Shown: positions 1,420 through 17,738, numbered from the stretch's first letter. The stretch is 32,000 nt of DNA from Nitrososphaera viennensis EN76 (GCF_000698785.1 NZ_CP007536.1:1800001-1832000), one strand, 5' to 3'. Made by a program: numbers and translations. The notes: generated from the letters alone by a model not told the origin.

Positions 1420-1427
1420 TGGATTAC
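1420..1427. repeat. Left copy of 8-bp target-site duplication TGGATTAC
   Basis: The identical octamer abuts the outer edge of both 60-bp terminal inverted repeats (1420-1427 and 4951-4958). Confidence 0.8.
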
Positions 1428-1487
1428 GGTGCTGTTACGTCTCCGATTGATCAGTCTGCCTGAATAGGCTGTTACAATTCGGTTGAT
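1428..1487. repeat. Left terminal inverted repeat (60 bp)
   Basis: GGTGCTGTTACGTCTCCGATTGATCAGTCTGCCTGAATAGGCTGTTACAATTCGGTTGAT is the exact reverse complement of 4891-4950, checked base by base. It contains GCTGTTAC twice. Confidence 0.9.
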
Positions 1488-1489
1488 GA

Positions 1490-2986
1490 TTGCTGCAATT
1501 TTATAATGTGATACTCAGAGACCTGCTGCTTTCTGATCCCACCACTTCAAACAAAACAATTCTTCTTAGACCCAAGAAAGTTACGCCAAAAGATAGATTC
1601 AACCTATATAGAATAAAGTATAATAACACATCATCTGAGAATCTTACAGTTATGCTTTCAATAACTCTACCCATGGAAGAGGAATTATGCAACAAATTCA
1701 TTAATTATGCGAGAACTAACAAACCTTTCAAGTACCAAAGTTTACGCGCCGAAGAGAAAAATCTGATAGTTGATCTTGATGAGACGCATGTAAGCACTAT
1801 AAACGAGTTTTTTGCATCATTAATTCATTTTGGTCGTCAAGAAGGAGTCAGTGCCAAAGAAGTTGACGAAATGATAGGCAAAGGCGACTATCAAGACATA
1901 GCCTTGGCTGCTGGCGGAAATCACTTCATCAATCAGTTTATACCAATAATGCTAAGCAAGCAAGAAGATTACAAGTGGATGACAGAACGGGCTCTTTGCA
2001 CTCAAATAATGCCTTTTATGAGAGTGCCCCTGTGTAGAGTGTTCCAGAGCTTTTCCTTCGGTGAGGATTTGCCGAGAGTTTATGGTTATGAACTAAAGAA
2101 AGCTCCAGAGACGGAATATATTAAAAAGACGCCCAAAATGTTCTCGACAGGTAAACCTGATGACGAGAACAAGATAGAGCAGCATTGTGCTAACATCAAA
2201 GGTCTAGGATATTTCGTGAGACAAGACCTTTTGCCTAAAGAGCTGGATGTGCAATTGGTTAGGCTGTCTGACAGAGCAAATCAACTTGCATCACAATTAG
2301 GAGTAAAACTGAATTCAGTGATCTTGACTATGCTTGATTATCCTTACGCTGCAAAACAATTGCAGTCCGTGTTAATTGTTAACCTGCGGCGTATCGAGCA
2401 ATGGCAAACAATTTTGAATAATGATCGCCTTCTTGATGCAGTTCTAACCTATCATCTTTCACATGCCATGAAAAGTACACCGGTTATGATACATCAAGAA
2501 TGGTTAGTCAACTTTGTATCGCTTGCAAGTGCCTACGAACATAGACCGGCCTTCAATATGCAATTGCTGCAGACGGCACTTGATTACTATAAAGGACATT
2601 ACATGTATGCCCTGTCTGATCTAGCCACCTTTAGACTTATGAATAGCGAAGATTTGAGAGTCTTTCTTGATTATTATGCAAAACAAGAGCTTCTTTCAAG
2701 AATGGAAAAAGAGCTCGAAATTGCAGGCAAACCCCGTTTTGACTCGCTGCTACTTGCAGCCGCCCTCGATGTTGCGGCTAGGAGAAAGGAGTTAGACATG
2801 CAGAGTGTAAAACAAGTTCGAGAGATGGCAGACGAAATTCCATTTTACAACGCGATAGTTAACCTCATGAATGAGGTCTGGGAAAAATCAAGTGGTCAGG
2901 ATTCGGTTTATCCTGCGGCCACTTTTGAAAACCTAGTGCGCGAAATGTTTCGCTATGCAATGCCAGATAAGCCTGTACCTTTCTAA
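1490..2986 (+). CDS. Hypothetical protein, transposon cargo (no recognisable domain)
   Basis: 498-aa ORF opening with TTG 2 nt after IRL. A more likely leaderless ATG is at 1652, preceded by the TATA-like CTATATAGAATAAAGTATAATAAC. Predicted mostly helical. I see no Walker A, nuclease or HTH motif. Visibly AT-richer than the transposase gene. Confidence 0.6.
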   Translation: MLQFYNVILRDLLLSDPTTSNKTILLRPKKVTPKDRFNLYRIKYNNTSSENLTVMLSITLPMEEELCNKFINYARTNKPFKYQSLRAEEKNLIVDLDETHVSTINEFFASLIHFGRQEGVSAKEVDEMIGKGDYQDIALAAGGNHFINQFIPIMLSKQEDYKWMTERALCTQIMPFMRVPLCRVFQSFSFGEDLPRVYGYELKKAPETEYIKKTPKMFSTGKPDDENKIEQHCANIKGLGYFVRQDLLPKELDVQLVRLSDRANQLASQLGVKLNSVILTMLDYPYAAKQLQSVLIVNLRRIEQWQTILNNDRLLDAVLTYHLSHAMKSTPVMIHQEWLVNFVSLASAYEHRPAFNMQLLQTALDYYKGHYMYALSDLATFRLMNSEDLRVFLDYYAKQELLSRMEKELEIAGKPRFDSLLLAAALDVAARRKELDMQSVKQVREMADEIPFYNAIVNLMNEVWEKSSGQDSVYPAATFENLVREMFRYAMPDKPVPF

Positions 2987-3198
2987 CTCTCATTGTGTGC
3001 TAATGCGCTGACAACGACAACTAGATTATTGTCCTTGGCCTGAATTTCCCATCTCAGCTTTCCACCTTCTTTTAGCCTCAATTGCCTAGTAATAGACATT
3101 GGAATAGTGGTGCGCAAAGACTGGCTGCGCGTGTTTGCCTTTGTCAATACTGTAATGTCGCCTTGCGACTCTTCGCTCATCAGTAAATTATTCTCCAA
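2983..3198 (-). CDS. AbrB/SpoVT-type (MazE-like looped-hinge) DNA-binding protein
   Basis: 71-aa ORF with the motif RTTIPMSITRQLRLKEGGKLRWEI..DNNLVVV, typical of SpoVT/AbrB domains. The likely true start is the ATG at 3180 (MSEESQ), about 25 nt from the TATA-like CTTTATATGC. Its stop codon overlaps the stop of the convergent 498-aa ORF. Confidence 0.65.
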   Translation of the reverse strand: MENNLLMSEESQGDITVLTKANTRSQSLRTTIPMSITRQLRLKEGGKLRWEIQAKDNNLVVVVSALAHNES

Positions 3199-3210
3199 AA
3201 GTGCATATAA

Positions 3211-3265
3211 AGTTACCTACATAGTTACCTATAGATTTATATATGTAGGTAACTAATTAGGTAAC
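3211..3265. promoter_or_regulatory. Symmetric four-site operator overlapping divergent promoters of the abrB-like and transposase genes
   Basis: AGTTACCTA at 3211-3219 and 3223-3231. Its reverse complement TAGGTAACT is at 3246-3254, and TAGGTAAC at 3258-3265. The sites are placed exactly symmetrically around the TATA-like GATTTATATATG (3232-3245). The transposase GTG start at 3266 abuts the last site. Confidence 0.6.
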
Positions 3266-4402
3266 GTGCAAGAGGTCAACTACCGCGAGCAACGGGGCAA
3301 GGCGATAGCCGAGACGGAAAACGCCGTGAGAAAACTGGACGAGAATACTTTTGCTGTCAAGTCTCAATCTGGAAAAGGCGAGTACACTGTCATCAATTCG
3401 GAGCTTGGTTATCTCTGCTCTTGTCCCGATAGCCTCTACCGAGGTGTTGTCTGCAAACATGCCTTTGCTGTCGCTATTCGCCAGCAGCTACACGCCTCAA
3501 TTTTAGCTTCGAAATTGGTAGTTGAGCCTCTATCTGTACAAAATTGCATTTTCTGCCAGTCTGCCAACCTAAAGAAGTACGGGATACGGAAGAACAAGAG
3601 TGGCAACATACAGCGTTTCCTGTGCGCAAACTGCACCAAGACTTTCAGTATCAACATTGGCTTTGAGAAGATGAAACATGACCCAAAGGCAGTAACTACG
3701 GCCATGCAATTGTACTTTAGCGGAGAGAGCCTTCGCAATACGCAACGCTCTCTCAGGCTGATAGGCATTGATGTGTCATACGTCACTGTCTATCGCTGGA
3801 TAGGCAAGTACGTGACGCTAATGCAAGACTATGTAGAGAAGTTACAGCCGCCAGTGTCGGATACATGGAGGGCAGATGAGATTTACGTCAAGATAAAAGG
3901 CGACATGAAGTACGTTTTCGCTCTCATGGATGACGAGACACGCTATTGGATAGCCCAAGAGGTGGCAGATACCAAATACAAGCATGACGCTCGCTCAATT
4001 TTCAGAAAGGGCAAAGAGCTTACTGGCAAAAAGCCAATGAAGCTGATAACTGACGGCCTTCCTGCTTACCGGGACGCATATCTCAAGGAGTTTTGGACGC
4101 TGAAAAAGGAAACGAGGACAGAGCACGTAAACACGATAAAGCTGGCTGGTAACATGCAGAATAACAAGATGGAGCGTATGAACGGGGAGATAAGAGATAG
4201 AGAGAAGGTCATGCGCGGTTTGAAAAAGAGGGATTCGCCCATACTAAAGGGCATTCAGCTATACCACAACGCGATACGAGAGCATCAGGGGTTGAACGGC
4301 AAGACTCCACTAGAGGTATGTGGCATTAAAGTTGAAGGCGAGAACAAATGGATAACGCTAATACAGAACGCGACTGAAACAATAAATCGTAGGGCGAATT
4401 AG
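3266..4402 (+). CDS. IS6/IS240-type DDE transposase with N-terminal SWIM zinc finger and zinc ribbon
   Basis: 378 aa. CSCPDSLYRGVVCKHAFAV is a SWIM-type CxC..CxH motif. CIFCQS...CANC is a zinc ribbon. DDE core: WRADEIYVKIKGDMKYVFALMDDETRYWI, LITDGLPAY, NNKMERMNGEIRDREK. Confidence 0.85.
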   Translation: MQEVNYREQRGKAIAETENAVRKLDENTFAVKSQSGKGEYTVINSELGYLCSCPDSLYRGVVCKHAFAVAIRQQLHASILASKLVVEPLSVQNCIFCQSANLKKYGIRKNKSGNIQRFLCANCTKTFSINIGFEKMKHDPKAVTTAMQLYFSGESLRNTQRSLRLIGIDVSYVTVYRWIGKYVTLMQDYVEKLQPPVSDTWRADEIYVKIKGDMKYVFALMDDETRYWIAQEVADTKYKHDARSIFRKGKELTGKKPMKLITDGLPAYRDAYLKEFWTLKKETRTEHVNTIKLAGNMQNNKMERMNGEIRDREKVMRGLKKRDSPILKGIQLYHNAIREHQGLNGKTPLEVCGIKVEGENKWITLIQNATETINRRAN

Positions 4403-4409
4403 CCAAGTT

Positions 4410-4889
4410 ATGACGCGAAAGTCGCTTGATGAATCAGACCGCATATATCGTCATGTCAAAAGTGAAATTGAAAGGATAATCGGCGCGCGTGTTAAGGAAA
4501 AAGGGACAAATGTTTGGGAATTGCCCAAGCCCTATGGCCACATTCTCAACGTTCACATAAGCACCGCCAAATCATACTTTTGGAACTTTTATCGAAATAA
4601 AATACAGGAAATTGAACGAGAAACAGAAAGTTGGTCTATTCTCCTTGTTGGAGGTAGGATACTCAAAACTTACGATGATGAAAAGGGCGACGGAGAGAAG
4701 GTGTACCTGAAATCCATCTACAACATATCTTCTGAGGAATACCAAAAGCGTGTTAATGGCTATTGGACTGAACGTGAGGATGGAGGATTCAAAATAAATG
4801 ATGAAGGTCAAGATTTGAGAGGCATTTCCTCTTTTGCATCGGTTAAGGATGCACTAAACGACATAATCATTCACCATAAAAAATCATAA
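4410..4889 (+). CDS. Hypothetical protein, transposon cargo
   Basis: 159-aa ORF. It starts 8 nt after the transposase stop and ends 1 nt before IRR. No recognisable motif. Confidence 0.55.
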   Translation: MTRKSLDESDRIYRHVKSEIERIIGARVKEKGTNVWELPKPYGHILNVHISTAKSYFWNFYRNKIQEIERETESWSILLVGGRILKTYDDEKGDGEKVYLKSIYNISSEEYQKRVNGYWTEREDGGFKINDEGQDLRGISSFASVKDALNDIIIHHKKS

Positions 4890-4890
4890 T

Positions 4891-4950
4891 ATCAACCGAA
4901 TTGTAACAGCCTATTCAGGCAGACTGATCAATCGGAGACGTAACAGCACC
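4891..4950. repeat. Right terminal inverted repeat (60 bp)
   Basis: Exact reverse complement of 1428-1487. Confidence 0.9.
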
Positions 4951-4958
4951 TGGATTAC
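4951..4958. repeat. Right copy of 8-bp target-site duplication TGGATTAC
   Basis: Identical to 1420-1427 and immediately outside IRR. Confidence 0.8.
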
Positions 4959-4984
4959 TATAATGGTAGTATCACAACAGCAAT

Positions 4985-5073: not shown

Positions 5074-6441
5074 TTATGCATCAAGTCCAACAAAGTCCTT
5101 CCAGCTTTCATCTTCTAATGTGTCTAGAAGCCTGCCAAGGCCTCCAAAATGGGACTTGCCGGCCGGCATGAAGATATTATTTTTCTCGTCTTCCTTTCTC
5201 TCGTGCTCTTTCTTTTTCTGCACAACATTTTTCCACCAGTCAGGAAAACATGCGCTTCCAACTATCTCCGGCGATATGTTGAGTTTGTACTGCGTCCCAT
5301 ATCCGTGTCTTCCCCGTGAGCTGGTCTGCGAAACAACGAGCCCGGTGTTGTCCAGTTCTGTCAGCAATTCTGAAACTCTCCTGTACGTCAGCGGCCTTGT
5401 ATCTTTCCGAATAATCTTGCAGTACTGTGCATAGATGACAGATGTCGAGTGCCACGCCTCACCGGTCAGGTACGTTATCCGCGCAAGCGCTGCGCATGCA
5501 AGTTTTAGATGATAGGATGCGCTCGAAAGCGCCAGGTTTACCCTGTCTTTCTGCAGCTGATCTGTGGCCGCATCAACATGCACATTAGCCAATTTCTCCT
5601 CTTTAAAGCTAGCAATCTCTGCAGCTACCCTGAGGAGGTCGATGGCACGTCTTGCGTCGCCGTGCTCCTCAGAGCTCTTTTCTGCGCAGTACTCCAGGAC
5701 AGCAGGATCGACTGGCGCCGAGAATGCCTTGGCAGCCCTTTCCCTCAGTATCTCAAGCACATCCTTCTTTGTGTATGCAGGAAAGAACACCTCTGTTGAT
5801 CCCATCCTCGACCTTACCCTGTCGTCCACTTCGTAGTCTGCCATCACGTTGTTAGAGATGACTATTATGCAGGAAAGGACTCCTTTCTCGCGCAGCTTTT
5901 CCTCCATCACCAAAAGCTTGTAGATAAAGTCAGATGGCTTGCCACGCTTGTCGTAAAAGAGCACGTCAAATTCATCCAGGACCAAGACAAAGAGTCTCTT
6001 GCCCTTTGACAAGGATTCAATGGCGCCCTGAATCTTTTCCACCGCGACATTGATTCCCTGCGCACTCTTTAGGCTCGGTTCCCCCATTTCGCCCAGGATC
6101 AAATTCGCGCAGCCAAAAACTGTCTTGGCCCTGCGCAGGTTGACAAAGCAGCACAACGCATCATCCAGGTTCTCGCAGACAAACCTGACGACTGTGGACT
6201 TGCCCGCGCCACTTCTTCCGTAGACTGAAATAAACGGAACTACATGACCCTTCTTGTAGCCTGCAATCAGCCGCACAAGCTCCATTGCCTTCTCTTTGCG
6301 GCCAACTATTGAGGAGGGAAACGTCAGAGTGTCGAGAAGGTCTTTTCTTGCAAAGAGCAGGTTTTCCTTCTCAACTTCCGATAACATCCTATCGATATCC
6401 GTCTTGCTCAGCTCCAACCTTTCCATTTCCACTGGAAACAC
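5074..6441 (-). CDS. cdc6: Orc1/Cdc6-family AAA+ replication initiator homologue
   Basis: 455 aa. Walker A GRSGAGKST, Walker B LVLDEFD, and a C-terminal winged-helix region (RRVSELLTELDNTGLV). The tail after the wH domain is about 55 aa, unusually long. The track start is GTG 6441; an ATG at 6426 (MERLEL) is an alternative. Confidence 0.9.
   Translation of the reverse strand: MFPVEMERLELSKTDIDRMLSEVEKENLLFARKDLLDTLTFPSSIVGRKEKAMELVRLIAGYKKGHVVPFISVYGRSGAGKSTVVRFVCENLDDALCCFVNLRRAKTVFGCANLILGEMGEPSLKSAQGINVAVEKIQGAIESLSKGKRLFVLVLDEFDVLFYDKRGKPSDFIYKLLVMEEKLREKGVLSCIIVISNNVMADYEVDDRVRSRMGSTEVFFPAYTKKDVLEILRERAAKAFSAPVDPAVLEYCAEKSSEEHGDARRAIDLLRVAAEIASFKEEKLANVHVDAATDQLQKDRVNLALSSASYHLKLACAALARITYLTGEAWHSTSVIYAQYCKIIRKDTRPLTYRRVSELLTELDNTGLVVSQTSSRGRHGYGTQYKLNISPEIVGSACFPDWWKNVVQKKKEHERKEDEKNNIFMPAGKSHFGGLGRLLDTLEDESWKDFVGLDA
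6427..6439. promoter_or_regulatory. Single ORB-core-like dyad between the TATA box and the orc1/cdc6 start
   Basis: The plus strand reads TTCCACTGGAAAC and the minus strand TTTCCAGTGGAAAT. This matches the archaeal origin-recognition-box core as I remember it (TTCCAGTGGAAA). TTTATATATG lies just upstream on the minus strand. Only one copy was seen. Confidence 0.35.
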
Positions 6442-6531
6442 ATATATAAATTTGAGACATGGACGCGTTGCTACACAGATAATCCATCGCCCGATGAATA
6501 TGGGTATAACAAGGGATCAAACAGCTAGGCA

Positions 6532-6698
6532 GGTGAAGAAAAAAAGCTGTTGCAGACAGGCGACACCATTACTATACCACAGCGCACAGTTCACAGGCTG
6601 GAGGGAGCAGGAACAGACGCCATAATTTTGAAATTTCAAAAGGAGAGTTTGACGAGGCTGACATTATAAGGATAGAAGACGACTACAAGAGAGCCTGA
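6532..6698 (+). pseudogene. C-terminal remnant of a cupin (type II phosphomannose-isomerase-like) gene, frameshifted
   Basis: Translates to GEEKKLLQTGDTITIPQRTVHRLEGAGTDAIIL. After a 1-nt frame change it continues EISKGEFDEADIIRIEDDYKRA*. This parallels the C-terminus of the intact cupin at 25924-26262 (GKEKRLLQTGESITIPKGTIHRLEGAGTDAVILEISKGDFDEADIIRIEDDYARK*). The N-terminal half is absent. Confidence 0.7.
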
Positions 6699-6767
6699 CT
6701 TTAAGTTGCAGATAATCCCTTAAAACTAGTTGAACTTATATAAGAAAGTAAAGTAGTCCCATACAAA

Positions 6768-7232
6768 TTGAAGATAGGCAAAGCGATTTCTATCGAACTG
6801 GACGATGGTCAGAGATTAAGTCTTTCTTTGAAAGAGGCAGGTGAGCTTTACCTGAAACTTGGAAATATGCTGACAGACGGCAGAGAAGCCGGAAAAAAGA
6901 AAAGCGGCAGAAAATCCAGAACCACCTTTGCCGGGTCTTCTCGTACAACAGTCACCATGAGCGACGCCAGGAGACAAGAGATACTGGAGCACCTCAACAA
7001 GCAGGTATCAGATACTCCTAGGACCCTTACGAACCTCCTGAAAGGCGTAAAATATTCTCCCAGTCAGCTACCTCTTATACGAAACATGGTTGAGAGTCAG
7101 CAGAGCATCAGAGCAAAGGCCAAAGGAAAGAGAACTCTGTACCTTAGAAAGAGAACCAAGGTGGCAGCAACAAAGGCAGCAAAGGCATTAAAGGGAACAG
7201 AAAGCGGGACGACATCGGTAGGCGCGGCCTAA
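6768..7232 (+). CDS. Hypothetical basic protein, possible wHTH
   Basis: 154-aa ORF with a TTG start about 25 nt after the TATA-like CTTATATAAG. Lys/Arg-rich. The segment RRQEILEHLNKQVSDTPRTLTNLLKGV is HTH-like. Confidence 0.4.
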   Translation: MKIGKAISIELDDGQRLSLSLKEAGELYLKLGNMLTDGREAGKKKSGRKSRTTFAGSSRTTVTMSDARRQEILEHLNKQVSDTPRTLTNLLKGVKYSPSQLPLIRNMVESQQSIRAKAKGKRTLYLRKRTKVAATKAAKALKGTESGTTSVGAA

Positions 7233-7295
7233 AGCTGCTTGCGAATACTTCTTTTTCTTCTTCATTTCGTTTATCATAGCCAATAAACACATGCC

Positions 7296-7480
7296 TCAAA
7301 ATCCCCCAACCTCTGGCAAGAATTCAAAGATCTCCTTCTTGAAATAGTAGATGCCGGCGTTTATCCATATATCATTCAACATTCCCTTTGAAGGAATCCA
7401 GTTACATGACTGCTGCGGTAGCCAGGATCCGGATAGGGATCGTTCTCGTTATCGTTGGTGGCGATGAACCCATAGGGACT
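7296..7480 (-). pseudogene. Remnant of a sugar-phosphate nucleotidyltransferase (NTP_transferase family)
   Basis: Minus-strand translation gives IWINAGIYYFKKEIFEFLPEVGGF* (INAGIY is the family signature). Upstream, in a different frame, it gives SPYGFIATNDNEND. There is no start codon, and the remnant is both frameshifted and truncated. Confidence 0.55.
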
Positions 7481-7587
7481 TATTGGCACTGCAGACACGG
7501 TATGACAAGCGCGCGGCCATAAGCAATTGGAAAATGCATGCCTTTGAATGATGATGCTGCTGTTTTTCTTATCAAAAAAAATACGTG

Positions 7588-7971
7588 CTACCAGCCTTCC
7601 ACCTTCAGTCCAGGTATGCGCTCAAAATGCTTTTTGTTCTTTGTGATAAGAACCTGCTTGTTGGCAAGGGCAATGCTGCCTATCAGCAGGTCCGATTCGC
7701 CGACAGGGTTTGACCTGTTGTGAAAGGCCCCGGCGGCCCTTGCAGAATCCCTGTCAAGCGCAAGTATGAAAAAGGCGTCAAGAAGTGCGTCAACCCGTGC
7801 AAGCTCTGCTCTGGTGTCCTTTGCATTGAAAGCACCCTTGTACAGCTCGAACGCGTTTATCACCGTGGTGTGCAGCGGCTCCTGCGCGGATTCGAGCTCT
7901 TGCAGCTTGTCCCTGGCCGCGGCATCTTTCCGGAGGTAAGCTACCATAAAGTCGGTGTCTAGGCAAACCAT
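7588..7971 (-). CDS. vapC: PIN-domain ribonuclease toxin VapC
   Basis: 127 aa. It starts MVCLDTDFMVAYL (first acidic PIN residue), followed by the conserved acidic/Thr pattern (ITKN). It lies 7 nt downstream of the small antitoxin gene. Confidence 0.85.
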   Translation of the reverse strand: MVCLDTDFMVAYLRKDAAARDKLQELESAQEPLHTTVINAFELYKGAFNAKDTRAELARVDALLDAFFILALDRDSARAAGAFHNRSNPVGESDLLIGSIALANKQVLITKNKKHFERIPGLKVEGW

Positions 7972-7978
7972 CTTTTGA

Positions 7979-8215
7979 TCAGGGGAGTTCCACGTCTCGG
8001 GTCTTGAAGCTCCTGCGCGATTCCTTGCTTGCCTGTTCGACTCTGTCTGCCAGCTCTGGCGAATACATTTCGTCCATCATTTCAAGCAGCCGGCGCGCGC
8101 TGCCCTTGCTTCCAGTCAGCCGGAGAATAACGTCCGTAAACGATTCTCCCTCCTTCTTTGAGGCTTTGAGGGCGCGGTATGCCTCTTCTGTGATTGATAG
8201 CGTTCTTGTCGGCAT
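7979..8215 (-). CDS. vapB: VapB-type antitoxin
   Basis: The small ORF is best started at MPTRTLSITEEAYRALKASK (ATG 8215), although the track extends it to 8239. It sits immediately upstream of the PIN gene. Confidence 0.7.
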   Translation of the reverse strand: MPTRTLSITEEAYRALKASKKEGESFTDVILRLTGSKGSARRLLEMMDEMYSPELADRVEQASKESRRSFKTRDVELP

Positions 8216-8232
8216 GGCGTTCTGTACAATAT

Positions 8233-8250
8233 AATACACATGTGTGTATT
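8233..8250. promoter_or_regulatory. 18-bp perfect palindrome upstream of vapBC (candidate operator)
   Basis: AATACACATGTGTGTATT is self-complementary. It lies 18-35 nt upstream of the vapB start, next to the TATA-like GTTTAAATA on the minus strand. Confidence 0.4.
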
Positions 8251-8980
8251 TAAACCTTAAAAACCTGCCAAAACCCCAAGAATCCAGCTGCCCGCCGCAT
8301 AAGATTGAAACCGAGCTAAGTGGAGAACCGCCGTCTCCGGAACCGAGGAAATTAGCTATTCATGTCAGACAAAAGTCATACTCTGCATTTGCCGAACGCA
8401 CACAGCCTGCTCGCAACCATTGATAATCTAGCCTGCATGACGCGCTCCCCCGCCCTTTTCTGCTCCCTGCCCATGTGCTTCTCATGATAAAGCGTGCTGC
8501 TCATCATCTGGATAAGGAAAACGCAACCGTGCTTGCTCTTACCGCGCTTGCCCCCAACCCCTGACGGGGCGCTCAGGAAGTAGAGAGAGTATGAGCATGA
8601 AAAAACATCAAGAAGCTTGGAGCAGTGATGGTTATGAGCAGAGGATGATGAGGAAGGGGCTTGCATGTATCTTTGATGAACTCTTTTTCTCAAGTTTCCC
8701 CACGAGCGCGCGCTGTTGTTACTGTGCCCATGGGCCTTTATACGATTTTGCCGTGGCATAGCAGATAGCACAAGGTGTGTTCACACATCAGCTACGGAAC
8801 AATCGTTACAAGGGTTGTATTCTGTAGAATACCACCCATAAAGCACACCAAGGAGCATAGAGGTAAGGATGCCCGAGTTTGGAGCAGTGTTGGCAGAGTT
8901 TGACAAGGATTGGGAGCGCTGCGTATCTTAGCATACTATATAATTATATGTCAAGATTGACCAAACTATATATAGCTTGC

Positions 8981-9685
8981 ATGCACATAATACAAAATGT
9001 GCAAGAGCTACTGAAAGGCGATGCATTCCTGTTTGCCCAGAGGCTGGACAATAGCAGCAGCGACAAGCCAGTCTATACTATGCAAGACGCAATTTCGGTG
9101 GCCGGCTCGGCCAAGACTGCTTACAGGCGTCTGAATGCTTTACAATCGCTTGGCCTTGCCAAGTACAGACGCGGAAGCTTTATCCTCAAAACAAACGTAG
9201 TGTCGCAGCCGGCAAACGTAATTGAAAAGCTTCTTCCATCCTTGGTTGCACTGAGCAAGGCCAGAAGGTTTGGACGAAACTATAATGATTCAGATATCAG
9301 GTTTGCAATGCAAAACATTTCTGACAAGGTTGTTACTTTAGACTACAAAGCGTACGAGCTTACGAAGTTCCAGACCCCGCTTGACCTGTACATCTACGTG
9401 CAGGATGTAGACCAAGTTGCCAGCTTTCTAAAAGAGAAGGGATTCAGGGAAGGTAAGAACGGCAGGGTTGTCATCCTGCCAAAAATGGGCGACTTTGAAA
9501 ACGAGATTGAAAGAGTGTATCTCGACTGCATGGCAAACGGCGAAAGAAGCACCATGGATGCAATAGCTATCGAGCTGCTCTACGAAGGCAGATTGAAGAC
9601 AAAAGGCCTGTTTCCAATCCAGCTAGTTAAAAAGGTGCAAGAAGACAGTGCTGGTGGAAAAATGACTGATTGTCTATTGCAATAG
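8981..9685 (+). CDS. wHTH protein, AbiEi-like antitoxin/regulator candidate; 3' end replaced by MITE sequence
   Basis: The ORF is open from 8879. ATG 8981 follows two TATA-like boxes (8934-8949, 8964-8976). wHTH-like segment: SAKTAYRRLNALQSLGLAKYRRGSFIL. The last 12 codons (SAGGKMTDCLLQ*) are encoded by the MITE at 9647-9725. Confidence 0.5.
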   Translation: MHIIQNVQELLKGDAFLFAQRLDNSSSDKPVYTMQDAISVAGSAKTAYRRLNALQSLGLAKYRRGSFILKTNVVSQPANVIEKLLPSLVALSKARRFGRNYNDSDIRFAMQNISDKVVTLDYKAYELTKFQTPLDLYIYVQDVDQVASFLKEKGFREGKNGRVVILPKMGDFENEIERVYLDCMANGERSTMDAIAIELLYEGRLKTKGLFPIQLVKKVQEDSAGGKMTDCLLQ

Positions 9686-9725
9686 AAAAACAGGCATCAA
9701 AATCAGCCGACTTCCCACCAGAACT
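9647..9725 (+). mobile_element. 79-bp MITE-like element, copy 2, with 8-bp TSD AAGAAGAC
   Basis: Identical to copy 3 and to the reverse complement of copy 1. It is flanked by AAGAAGAC at 9639-9646 and 9726-9733. Confidence 0.8.
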
Positions 9726-9761
9726 AAGAAGACCTACCATTATCCAACAGCAAGTGAAAGT

Positions 9762-10292
9762 ATGCACCCGCTGATCCAAGAAGCAATAAGGATAACGGAA
9801 GACATTGGAGACGTGATCTTTGTGGGAGCAGTCGGGATATTCTTGCAGACAAAAGCAACCAAGGAGTCGCAAGACCTGGATTTTGCAGTGGCCAAAGAAC
9901 TACGTGCGGAACTGCTGGATGAAAGAGGGTACTTTGTACGCAAGACCAAAGGGAAGGAAGCAAGGTACACCCCAAGAGGATACAAGATCGACATCTATAC
10001 TCGAGACGTTAGCGGCATACCAATAGACAAGATAATAGATACTGCAAAGGACATCGAGGTCAGAAAAGGAGTAACACTAAAGGCAGCAAGCATCGAGGTG
10101 CTTGCAGTATCGAAGTTCAGGGCTGCCGCAAAGAGGAGGGGTACTGACGACGTAGACATTCGTACCATTGTTCAGAGAAAGTACAAGCACATAGACTGGA
10201 ATGTTTTAAAGTCACTGACTGAAGGCGAGATAGAGTTTAAACGAATAAAGGACCAGATGGACGTGCTGCACCGGATGCAGCTAAGATTCTAG
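9762..10292 (+). CDS. Pol-beta-superfamily nucleotidyltransferase, AbiEii-like toxin candidate
   Basis: 176 aa. NTase signature VIFVGAVGIFLQTKATKESQDLDFAV. It is the partner of the upstream wHTH gene and shares its architecture with 24-707. Confidence 0.6.
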   Translation: MHPLIQEAIRITEDIGDVIFVGAVGIFLQTKATKESQDLDFAVAKELRAELLDERGYFVRKTKGKEARYTPRGYKIDIYTRDVSGIPIDKIIDTAKDIEVRKGVTLKAASIEVLAVSKFRAAAKRRGTDDVDIRTIVQRKYKHIDWNVLKSLTEGEIEFKRIKDQMDVLHRMQLRF

Positions 10293-10656
10293 CCGACTTG
10301 CCTACCCCATCATCGACAGTAGTATCGTGTACAACGAACACAAGCTGGCTGCAGGGCGGCTTTGTTTAAAAAGTGACTTAGCCACGCTCAATCAGTATCA
10401 TAAGTTCAAGATTCCCACGCTCAACTTCTGACTTTTTGCACAAAGCCCTGCAGGGCTACTTGCATTAAAGTAAGAGGCCTTTAACCACCTGCCGGAAGGA
10501 TGGACTGGAATTGACGTCTTTATCACGCATCCAGACGCGCCAAGGAGCGTCGTGGTAAAGATGCCGGACTTTGAAGCTGTGCTTGCAGAGTTTGCCAAGT
10601 ATGATAAGGATAAAAATAGAGAATGAGTCGCTCGAGTAGGAGAAATAGCAGTTTGT

Positions 10657-10688
10657 GTAGCTACGCCTTCTGGCGTAGCTACTTTTTT
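10657..10688 (+). terminator. Hairpin plus T6 tract (terminator-like)
   Basis: GTAGCTACGCC-TTCT-GGCGTAGCTAC forms a perfect 11-bp stem and is followed directly by TTTTTT. Confidence 0.45.
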
Positions 10689-10848
10689 GACGCTGTTAGG
10701 TTGGCTGCGGATTTCGGGCTTTCCGTTCTGGTGTTAAGTTACGGATGGTTTTCTGGCATGGAGAACACTTGCACATCGCAATATCAGCCGCAAGTTAACT
10801 GCCCGCTGGAAAGAGCAAAATCCGCAGCCAACCTAACAGCGTCAAAAA
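10684..10848. repeat. Long inverted repeat: 31-bp perfect arms separated by 103 nt (MITE-like or structured RNA)
   Basis: TTTTTGACGCTGTTAGGTTGGCTGCGGATTT (10684-10714) is the exact reverse complement of 10818-10848. The interior has further imperfect complementarity. Confidence 0.8.
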
Positions 10849-10989
10849 TAAAGAGGCAAAAGAAAAGGCGCTAGACCTGCTTTCAGAGCTAATAGACCAG
10901 GGTCTCAACCTCTTTTCCGTTGATTATACTATGCAGCTTGAAGCAAGACTGAGCAAAAAGAACATGAGCATAGGCATGGTGGGCGACTT

Positions 10990-12243
10990 TTGGAAAAAGT
11001 TGTGGCGACCAAGACAGATATCGCGACCATAGGAAGTCTCGACGCGAATCTGAAAGAATTAAAAATCTCGCTGGCGCAGGCACCAGCCACCATCCAGTAC
11101 ATTGAGCATGTGAGGGCAATGGACTTTCAAGCAAGCGAGCTGAAGGCGATTCACGAAGCTGTGGCCAAATTTGGGTCTGCCCAACAGATCCTTGAGGCCG
11201 TTAACAGCTATGGCTCAAAAATGGCCATCGATAAGGCGACTGCAGCATCGAAGGCGCAAAAGGAGAGAATGGATGCCAGCTTGGCAGATGCAGTGAATAA
11301 CTTCAAGGGCATACAGGAGAAGGTGCAGGCAGCGTCTCAGTCTCTTCATGTCCTGCACAGGCTGGAAAAGGAAGGTCTTACCGAATCTAAAATGCTTCAC
11401 ATTGAAAAGGTGTGTGAAAAGCTTGGCGGGCTAGAACAGGCGGAACGAAAGGTGTCTGGATATGTCACCCTTGAGCAGCTGGAAAACGAGATCAATTTGC
11501 GCAAGGACGAGTTACGGCAAATTGAGGAGAATATGGCCCATAGGCAAAGAGTCAATGAATTCGCTGAAAAGCTATTAACAAAATTCAGGTACAACCTGTC
11601 AGCCATTGACGAGGTCTATGCCGCTGCCGAGGCAAGCGGAGAACCCATTGAAACGATAAGAAGGATTAATCGCCTCGGCGATCTGCAAAAAATCGAGGCA
11701 GAGATAGAAAAGAAGGACAGGGAGCTTGTCGCAAACGAGATTTATTTTGAGGCAGCGACTGAGGCGACGCAGATTCTTTCCGACGGCACAGAAGCTCTCA
11801 AGAAACAACAAAAAGAGCTCATCGAAAGTATCGTGGGTGAACTTTCGGAGGCCTTCAAGAATGCCACCAACAGCATAGCAGTCGAGCACCAAAAAGGCAT
11901 AAACAGACTGAGCGAATTTCAGGAAAAGTACGCAGGCATTATGGCAAATGCCGAAGTCCTTGAAAATGAACTGAAAATGGCGAGGGTATTGATGACGACC
12001 AGAAACTTTCCTGCAGAAGTTCTCCAATGGCCACTAGAGTTCGCAGTACTTTTTCTCGAAGTGGCGGCCAGATTCTGCAGAGCCAAATCGGCCAATCCAA
12101 AGATTGAACTCAAAAAGCAATTCGAAGAAAAATACGGTTTGACATATATTGCATCGGCAAATATTGCATTTCTGGATCTGGTTGAATGGGCCATTGAAGC
12201 ACTAGAGTTGTACATCGGGCGAAGCAAGAGGGTGCTGCCATGA
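10990..12243 (+). CDS. Hypothetical long coiled-coil protein
   Basis: 417-aa ORF with an uncertain start (TTG 10990, or ATG 11119). The sequence is dominated by heptad-like E/K/L/A/Q runs. The C-terminal 80 aa or so are more hydrophobic and globular. Its stop overlaps the next start (ATGA at 12240-12243). Confidence 0.6.
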   Translation: MEKVVATKTDIATIGSLDANLKELKISLAQAPATIQYIEHVRAMDFQASELKAIHEAVAKFGSAQQILEAVNSYGSKMAIDKATAASKAQKERMDASLADAVNNFKGIQEKVQAASQSLHVLHRLEKEGLTESKMLHIEKVCEKLGGLEQAERKVSGYVTLEQLENEINLRKDELRQIEENMAHRQRVNEFAEKLLTKFRYNLSAIDEVYAAAEASGEPIETIRRINRLGDLQKIEAEIEKKDRELVANEIYFEAATEATQILSDGTEALKKQQKELIESIVGELSEAFKNATNSIAVEHQKGINRLSEFQEKYAGIMANAEVLENELKMARVLMTTRNFPAEVLQWPLEFAVLFLEVAARFCRAKSANPKIELKKQFEEKYGLTYIASANIAFLDLVEWAIEALELYIGRSKRVLP

Positions 12244-12605
12244 ATTTTGATACCATTGACCGCCATATCCAAGAGCTGACTGCCATAAAGAACTATGACA
12301 TGGTAGTTGCTGCTGGAGAGAAAGTTCTCGAAGAAAACGATAAACTGAAGAAAAAGATCGAAGAACTCGAGAAGAAAACATACGCAGACATGCTCAACGA
12401 AATAGATCAGATAATCAGAGAGATGCTAAAGGAAGAGCCCAGCCTCTCAAAAGAAGTAATAGAATCGGGCATCCTAGAAAGGATAGAGGAATTAGTTGCG
12501 ATTCATCACTTTAGGCGATCTAATATTCCCCTTATCGTAGAAGGTGTGATAGATATGGTTTCTGAAAGGTTGGCTCCCGTAGAAAAAAACGAAGATGCAA
12601 AATAA
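12240..12605 (+). CDS. Hypothetical small coiled-coil protein, translationally coupled to the upstream gene
   Basis: 121 aa. ATGA start/stop overlap with the upstream gene. Coiled-coil segment: ENDKLKKKIEELEKKTYADMLNEIDQIIREMLKEE. Confidence 0.55.
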   Translation: MNFDTIDRHIQELTAIKNYDMVVAAGEKVLEENDKLKKKIEELEKKTYADMLNEIDQIIREMLKEEPSLSKEVIESGILERIEELVAIHHFRRSNIPLIVEGVIDMVSERLAPVEKNEDAK

Positions 12606-12694
12606 TGCACTGTCAAGTTTTCGTCAGATCCAATTTTATCTCAAAACTAATCCATCCTACAAATTCTTGACAATACTCAAATGTTAGCTATTTA

Positions 12695-12727
12695 TTAACA
12701 AGTGTTAACAAATTAACAACATAACAA
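12695..12727 (+). promoter_or_regulatory. Four tandem TTAACAA/TAACAA repeats upstream of the wHTH-MNT gene
   Basis: ATTAACAAGTGTTAACAAATTAACAACATAACAAG. The repeat starts are at about 12695, 12705, 12713 and 12722, and the run ends 14 nt before ATG 12741. Confidence 0.35.
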
Positions 12728-12740
12728 GTTGGCAAGTAGC

Positions 12741-13346
12741 ATGTTAGAACAACTCTTTACTTCAAAAGCTAGAGTGAAGGTCCTAGAAACGTTCCTAGTA
12801 ACTTCGAGCGATGCAGAAATGCACATCAGAGAGCTGGCCAGAGAATTAAACACTTCTCCACCGCACATCATGAAGGTTCTTGAAAGCCTGACAAACCTAG
12901 GCATACTGACAAAAGTAAGAAGAGGAAATATGGTATTTTACAAACTCAATAAATCTTCAACCATAGCTGAAGATATCAAGAGAATTCTACTAAAGACCGA
13001 AAGCCTAGGTTACGAATTTCAGAAGCTTCTGAAAGCATCAGACAAACAAAGTATCAGATACGCACTGATATATGGGTCATTTGCAAAAGGAACTGAAGTC
13101 ACCAGTAGTGACATAGATCTATTGGTGATAGGTGATATAGACGAGGATGAAGTCGTGAAAACCGTATTGAAGGCCCAGAAGAGGATAGGACGCGAGATAA
13201 ACTATATTGTCTGGAACGAAAAAGAATTCGCAGAAAAGATTCGTTCAGAAGCCGTGCTTTTACGCGAAATTGCAAAGACCCCAGTTATAATGCTAATTGG
13301 TGACGAACATGAGTTTAAGCGATCTATCAAAGAAGCGCATAATTGA
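12741..13346 (+). CDS. wHTH-fused minimal nucleotidyltransferase (MNT, antitoxin-like partner of HEPN)
   Basis: N-terminal wHTH (MHIRELARELNTSPPHIMKVLESLTNLGIL). Classic MNT motif YGSFAKGTEVTSSDIDLLVIGD. The start is taken at MLEQLF. Confidence 0.8.
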   Translation: MLEQLFTSKARVKVLETFLVTSSDAEMHIRELARELNTSPPHIMKVLESLTNLGILTKVRRGNMVFYKLNKSSTIAEDIKRILLKTESLGYEFQKLLKASDKQSIRYALIYGSFAKGTEVTSSDIDLLVIGDIDEDEVVKTVLKAQKRIGREINYIVWNEKEFAEKIRSEAVLLREIAKTPVIMLIGDEHEFKRSIKEAHN

Positions 13347-13740
13347 ACAATTCAGGTCTGAACCTCAACAGGTAAGGGACCAGATGGATCTAGCGAGAGC
13401 GAAGCTCAAATCTGCAAAGAATATTCTCGGTATAAATGAATGGGAGGAGGCCCACAATGCAGCTTATCACGCCATGCAGGCAGCAGGAAGGGCACTAATG
13501 TATGATAAAGGGTACAGACCGATGAGTGCCGATCACCATGTTGCAGTCATACTCTTCGTTCAAGCAGTTCATGGCAACAAGTTCGGACCTGAAGTCCTCA
13601 AAGCGTTCGACAATGCAAGGAAGAAGAGGAGCGAGTCGCTTTATGACGCAGCAGACACCATTTCTCCTACACAGGCCAAGAACCTTGTCACCAAGGCTGA
13701 ATTTTTCGTGTCAAAAGCGGCCGCAATATTGAAACTCTAG
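13309..13740 (+). CDS. HEPN-domain protein (toxin-like partner of MNT)
   Basis: About 143 aa, all-helical. EEAHNAAYHAMQAAGRALMYDKGYRPMSADHHVAV and ARKKRSESLYD resemble the HEPN fold. It overlaps the MNT gene's 3' end. Confidence 0.7.
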   Translation: MSLSDLSKKRIIEQFRSEPQQVRDQMDLARAKLKSAKNILGINEWEEAHNAAYHAMQAAGRALMYDKGYRPMSADHHVAVILFVQAVHGNKFGPEVLKAFDNARKKRSESLYDAADTISPTQAKNLVTKAEFFVSKAAAILKL

Positions 13741-16357: not shown

Positions 16358-16716
16358 TAACCATCTACCTCTTCTTTAGTAGCAGCAATACCTAGAGCTG
16401 ATGGAAGCAGTGACGTGGTAGGGGGATAGATATACCGAATAATAGATAATAAAGTCGGAAAATTTGTTAGTGACACTTGATAAAAGCTAAAGCAATAGTT
16501 TAGTGCCTGTACATTTTCAGGGCTTTCCCGACATTTTGCGCCTGTGCAACGGATTATGCAACGCTCTTGTTGCATTGGACGCTCAAAGGAAGCGACTTTC
16601 TCACATAATTAATTCTCAAGATTCGGGCAACGACAAGTTTCAATCCTTGTTATGGTGAATTCGTCTTTCAGACAGCGCCGCGGACATCCCATTTCGTGCT
16701 CAAAATTGCAATCACC

Positions 16717-17738
16717 GGACACACAAAATCTGTTCGCTCATTTCCGAATCTTTCAGCCAAGCTTAAAGCTCGCTTCTCGTAACATGCTCCGATGTTCACC
16801 CTGACCACATCCCTCCCTGACGAAAAGTGGTGCGTCGATGTACTGAGAAAGGTCCGGTGGAGCGACCACGTAACATGCCCCTACTGCAGTTCAGGTAATG
16901 TGAAGAAGGACGGCAGGTACAGGTCGTACCAAAAGTACCACTGTAAATGCTGCAAGAAATGGTTCAACGACAAGACGGGCATCATATTCTACTATTCACA
17001 CTCGCCATCGAAAACATGGTTCCTGGTCCTGTACCTATTCTTCGTATTGTGGCCAGGCTGCTCCATAAGGGAAGTATCGCTTGAAACGAATACACCGTAC
17101 AATAGATGCTACAGGTTCGTCAGGACAGTCATGGAGAAACTATCGTCATTTCCTTCACCCAACTCGACGGTACTGCAGAAAGCGACGAGTTCTACATCAA
17201 GGCCGGACTGAAGGGCAGACCATACCATAAGGAAATCATCCGGCTGGGTAATAAGCCTAGAAGGCGCGGACTAAAGCCATGGAGGGGAAGGGGCACATTT
17301 GAGAAGGAACAACCAATGATAACCTGCATCCATGAGAGAGGCAGTGGAATGACCCTGTTTGACGTGCCTATACAGCAGCCATTACTTGACGTCGTATGCA
17401 GTAGCGTCAGCTATGGCTCTACTGTGTACACAGACGAGTACAGGGCGTACGGCCAGCTGCAAGAACACGGGTTTGTACACGAACGCGTGGGCCACTCCGG
17501 GAAGGAATACGCAAGGGGCGATGTTCACGTGAACAACTGCGAGTGCAGGAGCAACCTGTGCCAGCTGTGGCTGAAAAAGTTCATGGGCGTCAACAGGTAC
17601 AATCTGCAGGCGTACGTGAAATCATTCCAGTTTGTCCATAATCTGAGAGACAAGACTAGGGAAGAAAGGTTCAGACGAATTCTCTGTTACAATTAGCTGA
17701 AACATTTGTGAATAAGAGCGAAATCTATTTTTAAATCC
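16717..17738 (+). mobile_element. IS1595-family-like insertion sequence (boundaries approximate)
   Basis: Imperfect inverted termini. The left end is GGACACACAAAATCTGTTCGCTC...TTTCAGCC. The reverse complement of the right end is GGATTTAAAAATAGATTTCGCTC...TTTCAGCT. I could find no clear TSD. Confidence 0.6.
16792..17696 (+). pseudogene. IS1595-type transposase split by a -1 frameshift
   Basis: ORF 16792-17211 carries the zinc ribbon (CPYCSSGNV..CKCCKKWF). ORF 17106-17696 carries the DDE core (ESDEFYIKAG, TDEYRAYGQL, HVNNCE). The frames overlap around 17150 with no slippery heptamer. Confidence 0.75.

Follow-up and report, generated by a model that had tools for sequence, protein, structure and literature searches.

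The window analysed here, a stretch of 32,000 nucleotides (nt) from the chromosome of the archaeon Nitrososphaera viennensis EN76 (NZ_CP007536.1:1800001-1832000), contains an element of 3,523 bp (positions 1428-4950) in which four open reading frames (ORFs) are packed edge to edge between two long inverted repeats (IRs). From left to right these are an ORFan (ORF1), a gene for a small AbrB-like protein, a gene for a transposase of 378 amino acids (aa) and a second ORFan (ORF4); the coordinates of all features are collected in Table 1. The interior of the element has a G+C content of 39-46%, compared with ~49-50% in its flanks. A first-pass annotation of this DNA had described an IS6-like transposon with perfect 60-bp IRs and an intact 8-bp target site duplication (TSD), and both features stand: the two arms are exact reverse complements at 60 of 60 nt, they end where they were said to end (the next base is mismatched on each side), and the 8-bp direct repeat TGGATTAC abuts both tips. 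The 60-mer has two exact occurrences in the window and none in 100 shuffles.

We conclude that the element is very probably an intact unit transposon (a 'transporter IS' in the terms of ISfinder, IS standing for insertion sequence) of the ISDsp3-like branch of IS6 sensu lato, inserted at an intergenic site of the N. viennensis chromosome. Its core consists of two 60-nt ends with two sites each, the 378-aa transposase and the divergently oriented small gene of putative AbrB fold, while ORF1 in the left arm and ORF4 in the right arm are its true cargo. Its anatomy and its transposase place it in this family, and its bipartite ends, the slot for a small regulator gene and the operator arrays beside that gene are conserved among relatives. 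The size of the element, its cargo and its long bipartite ends (50-60 nt) are the rule in the archaeal ISDsp3-like clade and not an oddity.

Table 1. Features of the element and of its surroundings, in window coordinates.
Feature	Position	Strand	Remarks
TSD, left copy	1420-1427	.	TGGATTAC; read directly, identical to 4951-4958
Left inverted repeat (IRL), 60 nt, bipartite	1428-1487	+	Perfect repeat; layout conserved in 104 ends of 52 relatives
IRL terminal site	1428-1451		GGTG-CTGTTAC-GTC-TCCGATTGAT
IRL spacer	1452-1468		
IRL subterminal site	1469-1487		CTGTTAC-AAT-TCGGTTGAT
ORF1, ORFan, 444 aa	1652-2986	+	From ATG 1652 (gene callers); ORF of 498 aa at 1490-2986
Putative DNA-binding protein of AbrB/MazE (swapped-hairpin) fold, 65 aa	2983-3180/3198	-	71 aa from TTG 3198
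Putative divergent promoter/operator region	3212-3265	.	Forms inverted repeat I2
Transposase, 378 aa	3266-4402	+	GTG start 3266; SWIM finger, zinc ribbon, helix-turn-helix (HTH), IS240/IS6-type DDE domain
ORF4, ORFan, 159 aa	4410-4889	+	Between transposase and IRR; ORF length and gene callers
Right inverted repeat (IRR), 60 nt	4891-4950	-	Subterminal site 4891-4909; terminal site 4927-4950
TSD, right copy	4951-4958	.	TGGATTAC; read directly
Orc1/Cdc6-like AAA+ gene	5074-6441	-	
VapB/VapC(PIN) pair	~7588-8239	-	
Nucleotidyltransferase/HEPN pair	12729-13740	+	
Zinc-ribbon ORF of IS1595/ISH4-like element	16792-17211		
DDE_Tnp_IS1595 ORF	17106-17696		

The family assignment is carried first of all by the transposase, which had been called IS6-type and matches the Pfam family DDE_Tnp_IS240 (PF13610) with 64.4 bits against a cut-off of 27 (E 1.6e-17). 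Instead of the IS26-type H-HTH with a short N-terminal extension, the protein has an N-terminal extension of ~130 aa made up of a SWIM zinc finger (PF04434, residues 51-72, 21.4 bits against a gathering cut-off of 19.6) and an IS1/IS1595-type zinc ribbon (residues 94-128, matched in NCBIfam). The four residues of the SWIM signature, C51-x-C53...C63-x-H65, are invariant in 28 homologues, as are the CxxC pairs, D204, D263, E303 and R310, and D204, D263 and E303 are predicted to form the catalytic triad, with R310 at +7. In a search that returned 5,617 transposase homologues, the best 120 of the 5,617 are 61-81% identical to the window protein, and the few of these 120 that bear source names come from Nitrososphaera and Bathyarchaeia/Bathyarchaeota. 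When 72,556 plasmids were searched with tblastn, 23 of the 25 matches listed were annotated as IS6 family and the other 2 were unannotated, at identities of 22-30%; the best was an ISCpe7-like protein of 340 aa from Clostridium perfringens (E 3e-18; by BLASTP, 27% identity over 290 aa, E 2e-26), whose IS has a tip, ATCTGTTAAGTT, that resembles the consensus of the archaeal family, GGTTCTGTtaagT. A sequence search of the PDB with the transposase gave no matches. In supplement file 4 of Krupovic et al. 2019 (PMC6563490), the interval 1803266-1804402 (+) of CP007536 appears as IS6, with 50.38% identity to ISDsp3_aa1; shifted by exactly 1,800,000, this interval is window 3266-4402, and the gene has thus already been catalogued as an ISDsp3-like IS6 transposase. 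That survey treated thaumarchaeal ISs as elements of one or two genes, with boundaries and cargo undescribed. NCBI names the protein 'DDE-type integrase/transposase/recombinase' and some of its 65%-identical homologues 'IS6 family transposase', and the annotation could be amended to give the 378-aa protein as the transposase of a bounded 3,523-bp element with ORF1 and ORF4 as its cargo.

The position of the element within IS6 can be judged from published descriptions. IS6 elements, as Varani et al. 2021 and Harmer & Hall 2019 describe them, measure 0.7-0.9 kb (up to 1.76 kb in long clostridial clades), have an 8-bp TSD, carry a single gene and end in IRs of 15-20 bp that start with GG and include cTGTt; ISDsp3 is the sole IS6 entry with a passenger gene (terminal inverted repeat (TIR) 28/36, TSD 8 bp). 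The window element shares the IS240-type catalytic domain, the GG...cTGTt tip and the 8-bp TSD, and departs from the description in its size, in its IRs, which are neither short nor single-site, in the number of its genes and in the E-x-DH-x3-K signature. The ISDsp3-like branch is marked by a long TIR, a TSD of 8 bp and one or more additional genes between the IRs, all of which the window element has. ISDsp3 itself, from Dehalococcoides sp. BAV1 (the 'solo' branch of IS6 in ISfinder), is the best ISfinder match of the window transposase (Krupovic et al. 2019) and, compared by its published description, shares the 8-bp TSD, a TIR that is long for IS6 and a passenger gene, but it measures 1,456 bp and has a 319-aa transposase without an intact zinc finger and one extra gene, whereas the window element has a SWIM and zinc-ribbon transposase, bipartite IRs and three extra genes. 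The long clostridial IS6 elements of the ISCpe7 group (clade VII of Harmer & Hall, clade h of Varani et al.), likewise have an N-terminal CxxC zinc-finger extension before the HTH-DDE region, an 8-bp TSD and a GG...CTGTTAAGT tip; they are single-gene ISs of 1.2-1.35 kb with IRs of 12-32 bp and, unlike the window element, lack a SWIM domain, a regulator gene, cargo and a subterminal site. IS26 and IS257 share with the archaeal elements the DDE_Tnp_IS240 domain, a GG tip with CTGTT and the 8-bp TSD, but are only 22-30% identical to the window transposase, in which E-x-DH-x3-K is not conserved. With a length of ~0.8 kb, IRs of 14-20 bp and a single gene, IS26 carries cargo only where two copies of the IS enclose it, in pseudo-compound transposons or translocatable units. 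In the open-access literature, only the main texts of Varani et al. 2021 and Harmer & Hall 2019 were found to mention 'ISDsp3', and no description of the architecture of this clade was found there, ISfinder and subscription journals being outside the scope of the search.

To place the element among its relatives, 80 loci from species-representative genomes and 2 metagenome loci were surveyed, with hosts that include Bathyarchaeia, Nitrososphaeria, Atabeyarchaeia, Methanotrichaceae and Methanocellaceae. Tips of the form GGNNCTGT were sought on each side of the transposase gene, and the 8 nt outside each pair were compared. Identical flanking 8-mers were present at 61 of 380 tip pairs, where 0.006 would be expected, and at none after displacement of the flanks by 5, 10 or 15 nt, which argues against the elements being artefacts of the search for tips and TSDs. 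Fifty-two distinct elements were bounded in this way, each with a perfect 8-bp TSD, ranging from 1,983 to 6,554 bp; their median length happens to equal that of the window element, 3,523 bp. Two of them, L008 and L009, were checked by eye (TSDs AACAATAG and CGAAAATC), and the tip of the former, GGCACTGTTAC, is IS26-like (IS26: GGCACTGTTGC). The tip of the window element, GGTGCTGTTAC, had likewise been compared to that of IS26, and it does contain the GG and CTGTT motif of IS6 ends.

Alignment of the 104 ends of these elements shows the same layout throughout: a terminal site of 24 nt with the consensus GGTTCTGT-N3-N-T-N3-CG-N5-T, a spacer that is usually ~17-28 nt long, and a subterminal site with the consensus cTGT-N3-N3-TCG-N5-AT. 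Each site can be divided into a conserved half, CTGTnAn, and an element-specific half, TCG-N5-(A)T, in which the N5 'code' varies between elements and is constant over all four sites of one element (for example, GTCAC in L021, GCACA/G in L026, GCATC in L066 and GGACA in L062). The 8-mer of the tip site recurs at 7 or more of 8 positions in the subterminal region of the same end in 62% of ends, compared with 11% when 8-mers of other elements are used. Ends fall into two length classes, ~50-52 nt and 60 nt, the window element belonging to the latter. In each of its arms GCTGTTAC is present twice, as had been noted, but the repeated unit is longer, at ~20 nt: the copies lie inside CTGTTAC-GTC-TCCGATTGAT (offsets 5-24) and CTGTTAC-AAT-TCGGTTGAT (offsets 42-60), and given the family alignment they would be the visible part of two ~20-nt transposase sites. 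The earlier proposal of two binding sites per end is thus favoured by both the conservation and the co-variation seen in the relatives, and such co-varying sites are the pattern that would be expected from a sequence-specific DNA-binding domain co-evolving with its sites. The right end may also be read as protein in some members: in 7 of the 52 bounded elements the transposase gene ends inside IRR, and in these 7, as in many metagenomic homologues, the C-terminus reads ...QPK...QPK, which corresponds to translated CAACCGAAA site cores, so that the transposase frame runs into the IR. Transposases ending in '...QPK...(Q)PK' include P0005, P0021, P0023, P0043, P0053, P0092, P0114 and P0117, and P0114 reads through the IR into flanking DNA (402 aa).

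A second conserved component is the small gene upstream of the transposase. The first-pass annotation had counted it, with ORF1 and ORF4, among three passengers; ORF1 and ORF4 can be retained as cargo, but a small gene (43-90 aa) divergent from the transposase gene and ~70-175 nt upstream of it occupies the same slot in ~46 of the 52 elements. The small genes of the relatives were defined by position and then scanned with Pfam. PF04014 was found in 17 of the 47 small proteins scanned, the window protein included, at E values up to 0.05 (best 8.7e-10), and the window protein is 38-43% identical to AbrB-type counterparts at the same position in other elements. Ribbon-helix-helix (RHH) types also occupy the slot (RHH_1, RHH_6, RHH_4, 56B_RHH, Antitox_RHH, CopG), as does, in 3 elements, a zinc-ribbon type (CxxC...CxxC, Zn_ribbon_8). 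The 32-kb window contains four copies of GTTACCTA in all, where 0.44 would be expected: two on the plus strand (3212, 3224) and two on the minus strand (3246, 3258), spaced 12 nt apart and arranged symmetrically about a palindromic TATA box, TTTATATA (3237-3244). The centre of the TATA box lies ~26 nt upstream of GTG 3266, from which a leaderless transposase mRNA is predicted, and the same palindromic box can, from its symmetry, serve the AbrB-like gene in the opposite direction, two GTTACCTA boxes lying between it and the predicted start in each direction. (A scan for bacterial sigma-70 promoters and terminators was uninformative, the host being an archaeon.) The corresponding intergenic region of the relatives nearly always contains 3-5 copies of an element-specific motif of 8-18 nt, inverted or direct. 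For example, operator-like TGTTACAATATGGTAACA is present twice in L023, TGTGTATAATACACA twice in L063 and ATCTACGTA four times in L077, while elements of AbrB type have TAGGTA(A/C) repeats. The fold is exchanged at a fixed position along with its operators, which points to a conserved regulatory role, and we infer that the AbrB-like gene is a core component, the predicted repressor of the divergent promoter pair, and not cargo.

The same small genes might instead be read as antitoxins of an addiction module with a stabilising effect on the element, in the manner proposed for transposons of the Tn3 family, and not as regulators of the transposase. We consider this unlikely, even though AbrB/MazE and RHH are classic antitoxin folds and the Pfam matches in the slot include MazE_antitoxin, PrlF, CopG_antitoxin, Antitox_RHH and HicB. 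A gene of 125-180 aa comes next on the strand of the small gene in 22 of the 52 elements, often overlapping it by 4 nt, and an antitoxin and its toxin are ordered in this way; however, no family is common to these downstream genes, none of them matches a known toxin, and the small gene of the window has no follower on its strand, ORF1 being convergent. One toxin alone could be recognised, a PemK/MazF in L081, but it is encoded in the opposite arm with upstream ORFs of its own, and on account of that location the small gene was rejected as its MazE partner. Moreover, the operator arrays overlap the promoter region of the transposase. It should be noted that type II antitoxins are autorepressors, so that the antitoxin and regulator readings are not exclusive.

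The two cargo genes of the window element, both 'hypothetical protein' in NCBI, were searched for in several collections. They matched no family in Pfam, NCBIfam, PADLOC or PHROGs, and a word-indexed search of 5.8 billion clusters returned only the proteins themselves. For ORF1, an exhaustive HMMER search of 1.84 billion representatives added a single homologue, P0123 (25% identity, E 4e-31), for which no genomic context was recovered; this one distant homologue indicates that ORF1 is a real gene. Its reading frame of 498 aa is present as first annotated, but gene callers begin it at the ATG that gives 444 aa; in-frame alternatives are TTG 1490 and GTG 1508, and in L100 the neighbouring gene is ORF1 called from GTG 1508. 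An AlphaFold2 model of ORF1 reached a predicted local distance difference test (pLDDT) score of 54, and Foldseek found nothing in the PDB below E 0.04 (TM-scores <= 0.16), while the model of ORF4 (pLDDT 36) was unusable.

The uniqueness of ORF1 and ORF4, which the 5.8-billion-cluster search places in the window element only, might suggest a singular case, in which a small IS6 element of the canonical kind acquired long IRs and three unrelated passengers, the AbrB-like gene among them. The published canon of IS6, with its small single-gene elements, short IRs and only ISDsp3 carrying a passenger, would favour such an account, and the first-pass annotation had accordingly regarded the size, cargo and long IRs as unusual. 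Among the archaeal relatives they are the norm. Every one of the 52 bounded elements is at least 1,983 bp long, with bipartite ends of 50-60 nt and extra genes, and ~46 have a small DNA-binding gene and an operator array at the same position, which makes a unique origin very improbable.

Elements with alternative cargo, which had been suggested as something to look for, are indeed present. An ORF of at least 90 aa lies to the left of the transposase gene in 50 of the 52 elements, to its right in 41 and on both sides in 39. The closest relative among the matches listed, L007, has a transposase 81% identical to that of the window, wholly different cargo and an HTH protein in the regulator slot, suggesting that cargo turns over quickly. 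The majority of the 141 cargo ORFs in the relatives belong to no family, and the recognisable ones are mostly restriction-modification genes: N6_Mtase (6), Eco57I (5), MmeI_Mtase (4), N6_N4_Mtase (3), Methylase_S (HsdS) (2) and HSDR_N (2), in addition to the restriction endonucleases RE_BsaWI and Mrr_cat. Other cargo families comprise the PemK toxin, proteasome-like and aspartyl proteases, NYN and GNAT. In two elements the zinc-ribbon protein of the regulator slot heads a series of genes on the same strand, namely a 220-aa gene, an N6 DNA methylase and an HsdS specificity subunit in L009 (2890-7179), and a 658-aa ORF and an HsdS-like ORF in L016 (6425-12125). No restriction subunit was recognised in either, and they would represent a mobile methylase/specificity module.

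Returning to the unit transposon of the window, these components suggest how it may work. Transposase protomers would occupy all four sites and pair the ends, and the predicted DDE centre (D204/D263/E303) would join the GG tips to a target cut with an 8-bp stagger, giving rise to the duplication of TGGATTAC. The AbrB-like protein may bind the four GTTACCTA boxes between the shared TATA box and both predicted starts and thereby repress both its own gene and the transposase, with ORF1 and ORF4 riding as passengers between the core and the ends. A route other than the replicative cointegrate of IS26, either non-replicative cut-and-paste or copy-out/paste-in, is possible for this clade but rather doubtful. 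Multi-site ends are typical of transposons with elaborate transpososomes, such as Mu, Tn7 and Tn402, and the ends described here are of that kind; the elements are found as simple TSD-flanked chromosomal insertions at low copy number, and scans of the window element's proteins against Pfam and NCBIfam gave no resolvase or recombinase. Yet resolved cointegrates leave the same simple TSD-flanked insertions, the catalytic domain is of IS6 type, and the sequence discriminates neither route. The cointegrate mechanism has been shown for the core IS6 group (IS26/IS257) only, and Harmer & Hall 2019 point out that experiments on long or archaeal IS6 elements are lacking, so that it cannot be assumed here. 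A further comparison is offered by unit transposons of other families. Tn3-family transposons carry toxin-antitoxin or regulator modules, and Mu, Tn7 and Tn402 have multi-site ends. The likeness is a functional one, in that cargo lies inside a unit transposon, a small DNA-binding gene adjoins the transposase gene and each end has several transposase-binding sites, but these systems have unrelated transposases, a 5-bp TSD and resolvases or accessory ATPases, and no homology is implied.

Several observations weigh against the reading of the window element as an intact, mobile IS6-type unit transposon, and we would like to emphasize them here. The NCBIfam model transpos_IS6 (NF033587) is a near miss, at 116 bits against a cut-off of 125 and over residues 133-337 only. 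After the catalytic glutamate the sequence reads E303-R-M-N-G-E-I-R310, in which the basic residue at +7 is kept but the D-H of the IS26-group signature E-x-D-H-x3-K/R is replaced by M-N. Harmer & Hall 2019 consider that long or archaeal 'IS6' elements may not belong with IS26 at all. The match of the window's small protein to PF04014 is below threshold (20.0 bits, gathering score 24.7, E 6.5e-4), and ORF4 is a candidate coding gene solely by its length and the gene callers. Finally, the exact transposase occurs at one place per genome. An uninterrupted site would be expected as ...AATAGATTG-TGGATTAC-TATAATGG..., and the exact junction, AAATAGATTGTGGATTACTATAATGGTAG, which had been put forward as a check, has no matches in genome contigs or in metagenome contigs; an IR 24-mer, as a probe for a second copy, has none in JGI metagenomes and IMG/VR viral contigs; and contigs with the flanking 211-aa gene all carry the insertion or break 30 nt into the IR, the break being an effect of assembly at k=31.

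Recent mobility, which had been deduced from the perfect IRs and the TSD, is therefore not demonstrated, as neither a second IR copy nor an empty site was found in the collections scanned and all flank-bearing assemblies contain the insertion. Two assemblies of N. viennensis, CP103305.1 and one of 2,527,938 bp, encode the exact transposase, as do metagenome assemblies that are derived or related, each time in identical context. The insertion could on this evidence be fixed and immobile, a relic or a domesticated gene set whose perfect IRs reflect young age or gene conversion, given that it is single-copy in both N. viennensis assemblies and present in every flank-bearing metagenome contig, and that N. 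viennensis has several different ISDsp3-like genes, each apparently single-copy, plus fragments. We regard this as improbable, since the transposase is full-length with every family-invariant residue, the IRs match at 60 of 60 and the TSD at 8 of 8 positions, and the operator is intact; moreover, the data come essentially from one cultured strain, which makes the absence of polymorphism uninformative. A circular or excised form was considered in the case of L003, a Logan contig of 3,463 nt, and rejected: its length equals 3,403 + 2x30 nt, a k=31 graph break at the inverted repeat.

The element, which we continue to regard as a unit transposon, lies between genes, downstream of the Orc1/Cdc6-like gene and 39 nt upstream of the ATG of the 211-aa gene. 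A TATA-like box of the latter, CTTTAAAT (1407-1414), is only 6 nt from the insertion point, and the insertion may thus alter the upstream control region of this gene. The repeat ATTACTATRATGGTA is present at 1388-1402 and 4954-4968; without the insertion the copies would be 33 nt apart, start to start, and the second overlaps the TSD. Further ISDsp3-like genes are listed for CP007536 at 864217-865353, 532351-533823, 220124-220897, 866664-867125 and 1600988-1601389 by Krupovic et al. 2019 (PMC6563490, supplement file 4), comprising at least two full-length genes and three fragments. As the exact window protein is found at one place only, these genes are not identical to it, which suggests several independent acquisitions in N. 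viennensis and not the proliferation of one element.

IS6 elements are textbook examples of minimal ISs, and their cargo is thought to be moved only between two flanking copies, as in the pseudo-compound transposons of IS26. We would tentatively propose, as a plausible extension of the present findings, that a very large branch of IS6 that is uncharacterised as a class (Nitrososphaeria, Bathyarchaeia, Asgard archaea and methanogens; >5,600 transposase clusters) has arisen by elaboration of a simple IS into a unit transposon built of modules. These would be four-site ends bearing element-specific codes, two cargo bays and a repressor cassette whose protein (AbrB, RHH or zinc ribbon) can be exchanged along with the operators that match it. 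Such elements may rank among the main carriers of restriction-modification and other accessory genes in mesophilic archaea and may insert preferentially against the ends of resident relatives. If this is true, the scope of the IS6 family would be broadened by an archaeal branch of unit transposons with internal cargo, two sites per end and a regulatory cassette, and ammonia-oxidising and sediment archaea, whose mobilome is poorly known, would share a common horizontal route for restriction-modification and accessory genes. The four-copy site code and the interchangeable repressor-operator pairs would also provide natural experiments on protein-DNA recognition, and because N. viennensis is cultivable, these predictions are testable.

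Some further observations were made in the course of the survey. At five loci two different members (E1 and E2) lie back to back with an 8-bp gap that is identical to both outer TSDs, an arrangement that can be written T-E1-T-E2-T and that implies that one member inserted exactly next to the end of a relative already in place (L023:7227-16173, L062:9001-14878, L067:8550-15050, L042:4533-12226, in inverted orientation, and L058:7190-11790; 8-mers TGCCGCGA, CCCAAACA, TGTTTTCC and CGAAATTA). A second transposase gene or fragment of the family lies within 10 kb at 18 of the 80 genome loci. Typical elements were also present in three metagenome-assembled genomes with bacterial labels, L017, L022 and L078 (Pirellulales, Saccharibacteria and Limnocylindrales), which could be mis-binned short archaeal contigs or real cross-domain transfer. 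The Aloposons, cargo transposons of Asgard archaea, were considered as possible relatives and set aside as unrelated, since they are tRNA-integrating and carry giant genes.

To the right of the element, positions 5074-13740 of the window resemble an accessory or defence-type region, with several ORFs without family next to the genes given in Table 1, and lie outside the elements NitVie-E1 to E5 and the provirus Nvie-Pro1 as listed by Krupovic et al. 2019. Farther along, a frameshifted IS1595/ISH4-like element occupies 16637-17700, with imperfect 20-nt IRs at 16647-16666 and 17673-17692. The window's sole Rfam match, CRISPR-DR7 (16637-16673, 38.5 bits against a gathering score of 37), falls on one of these IRs with no array around it and is probably a false CRISPR call.

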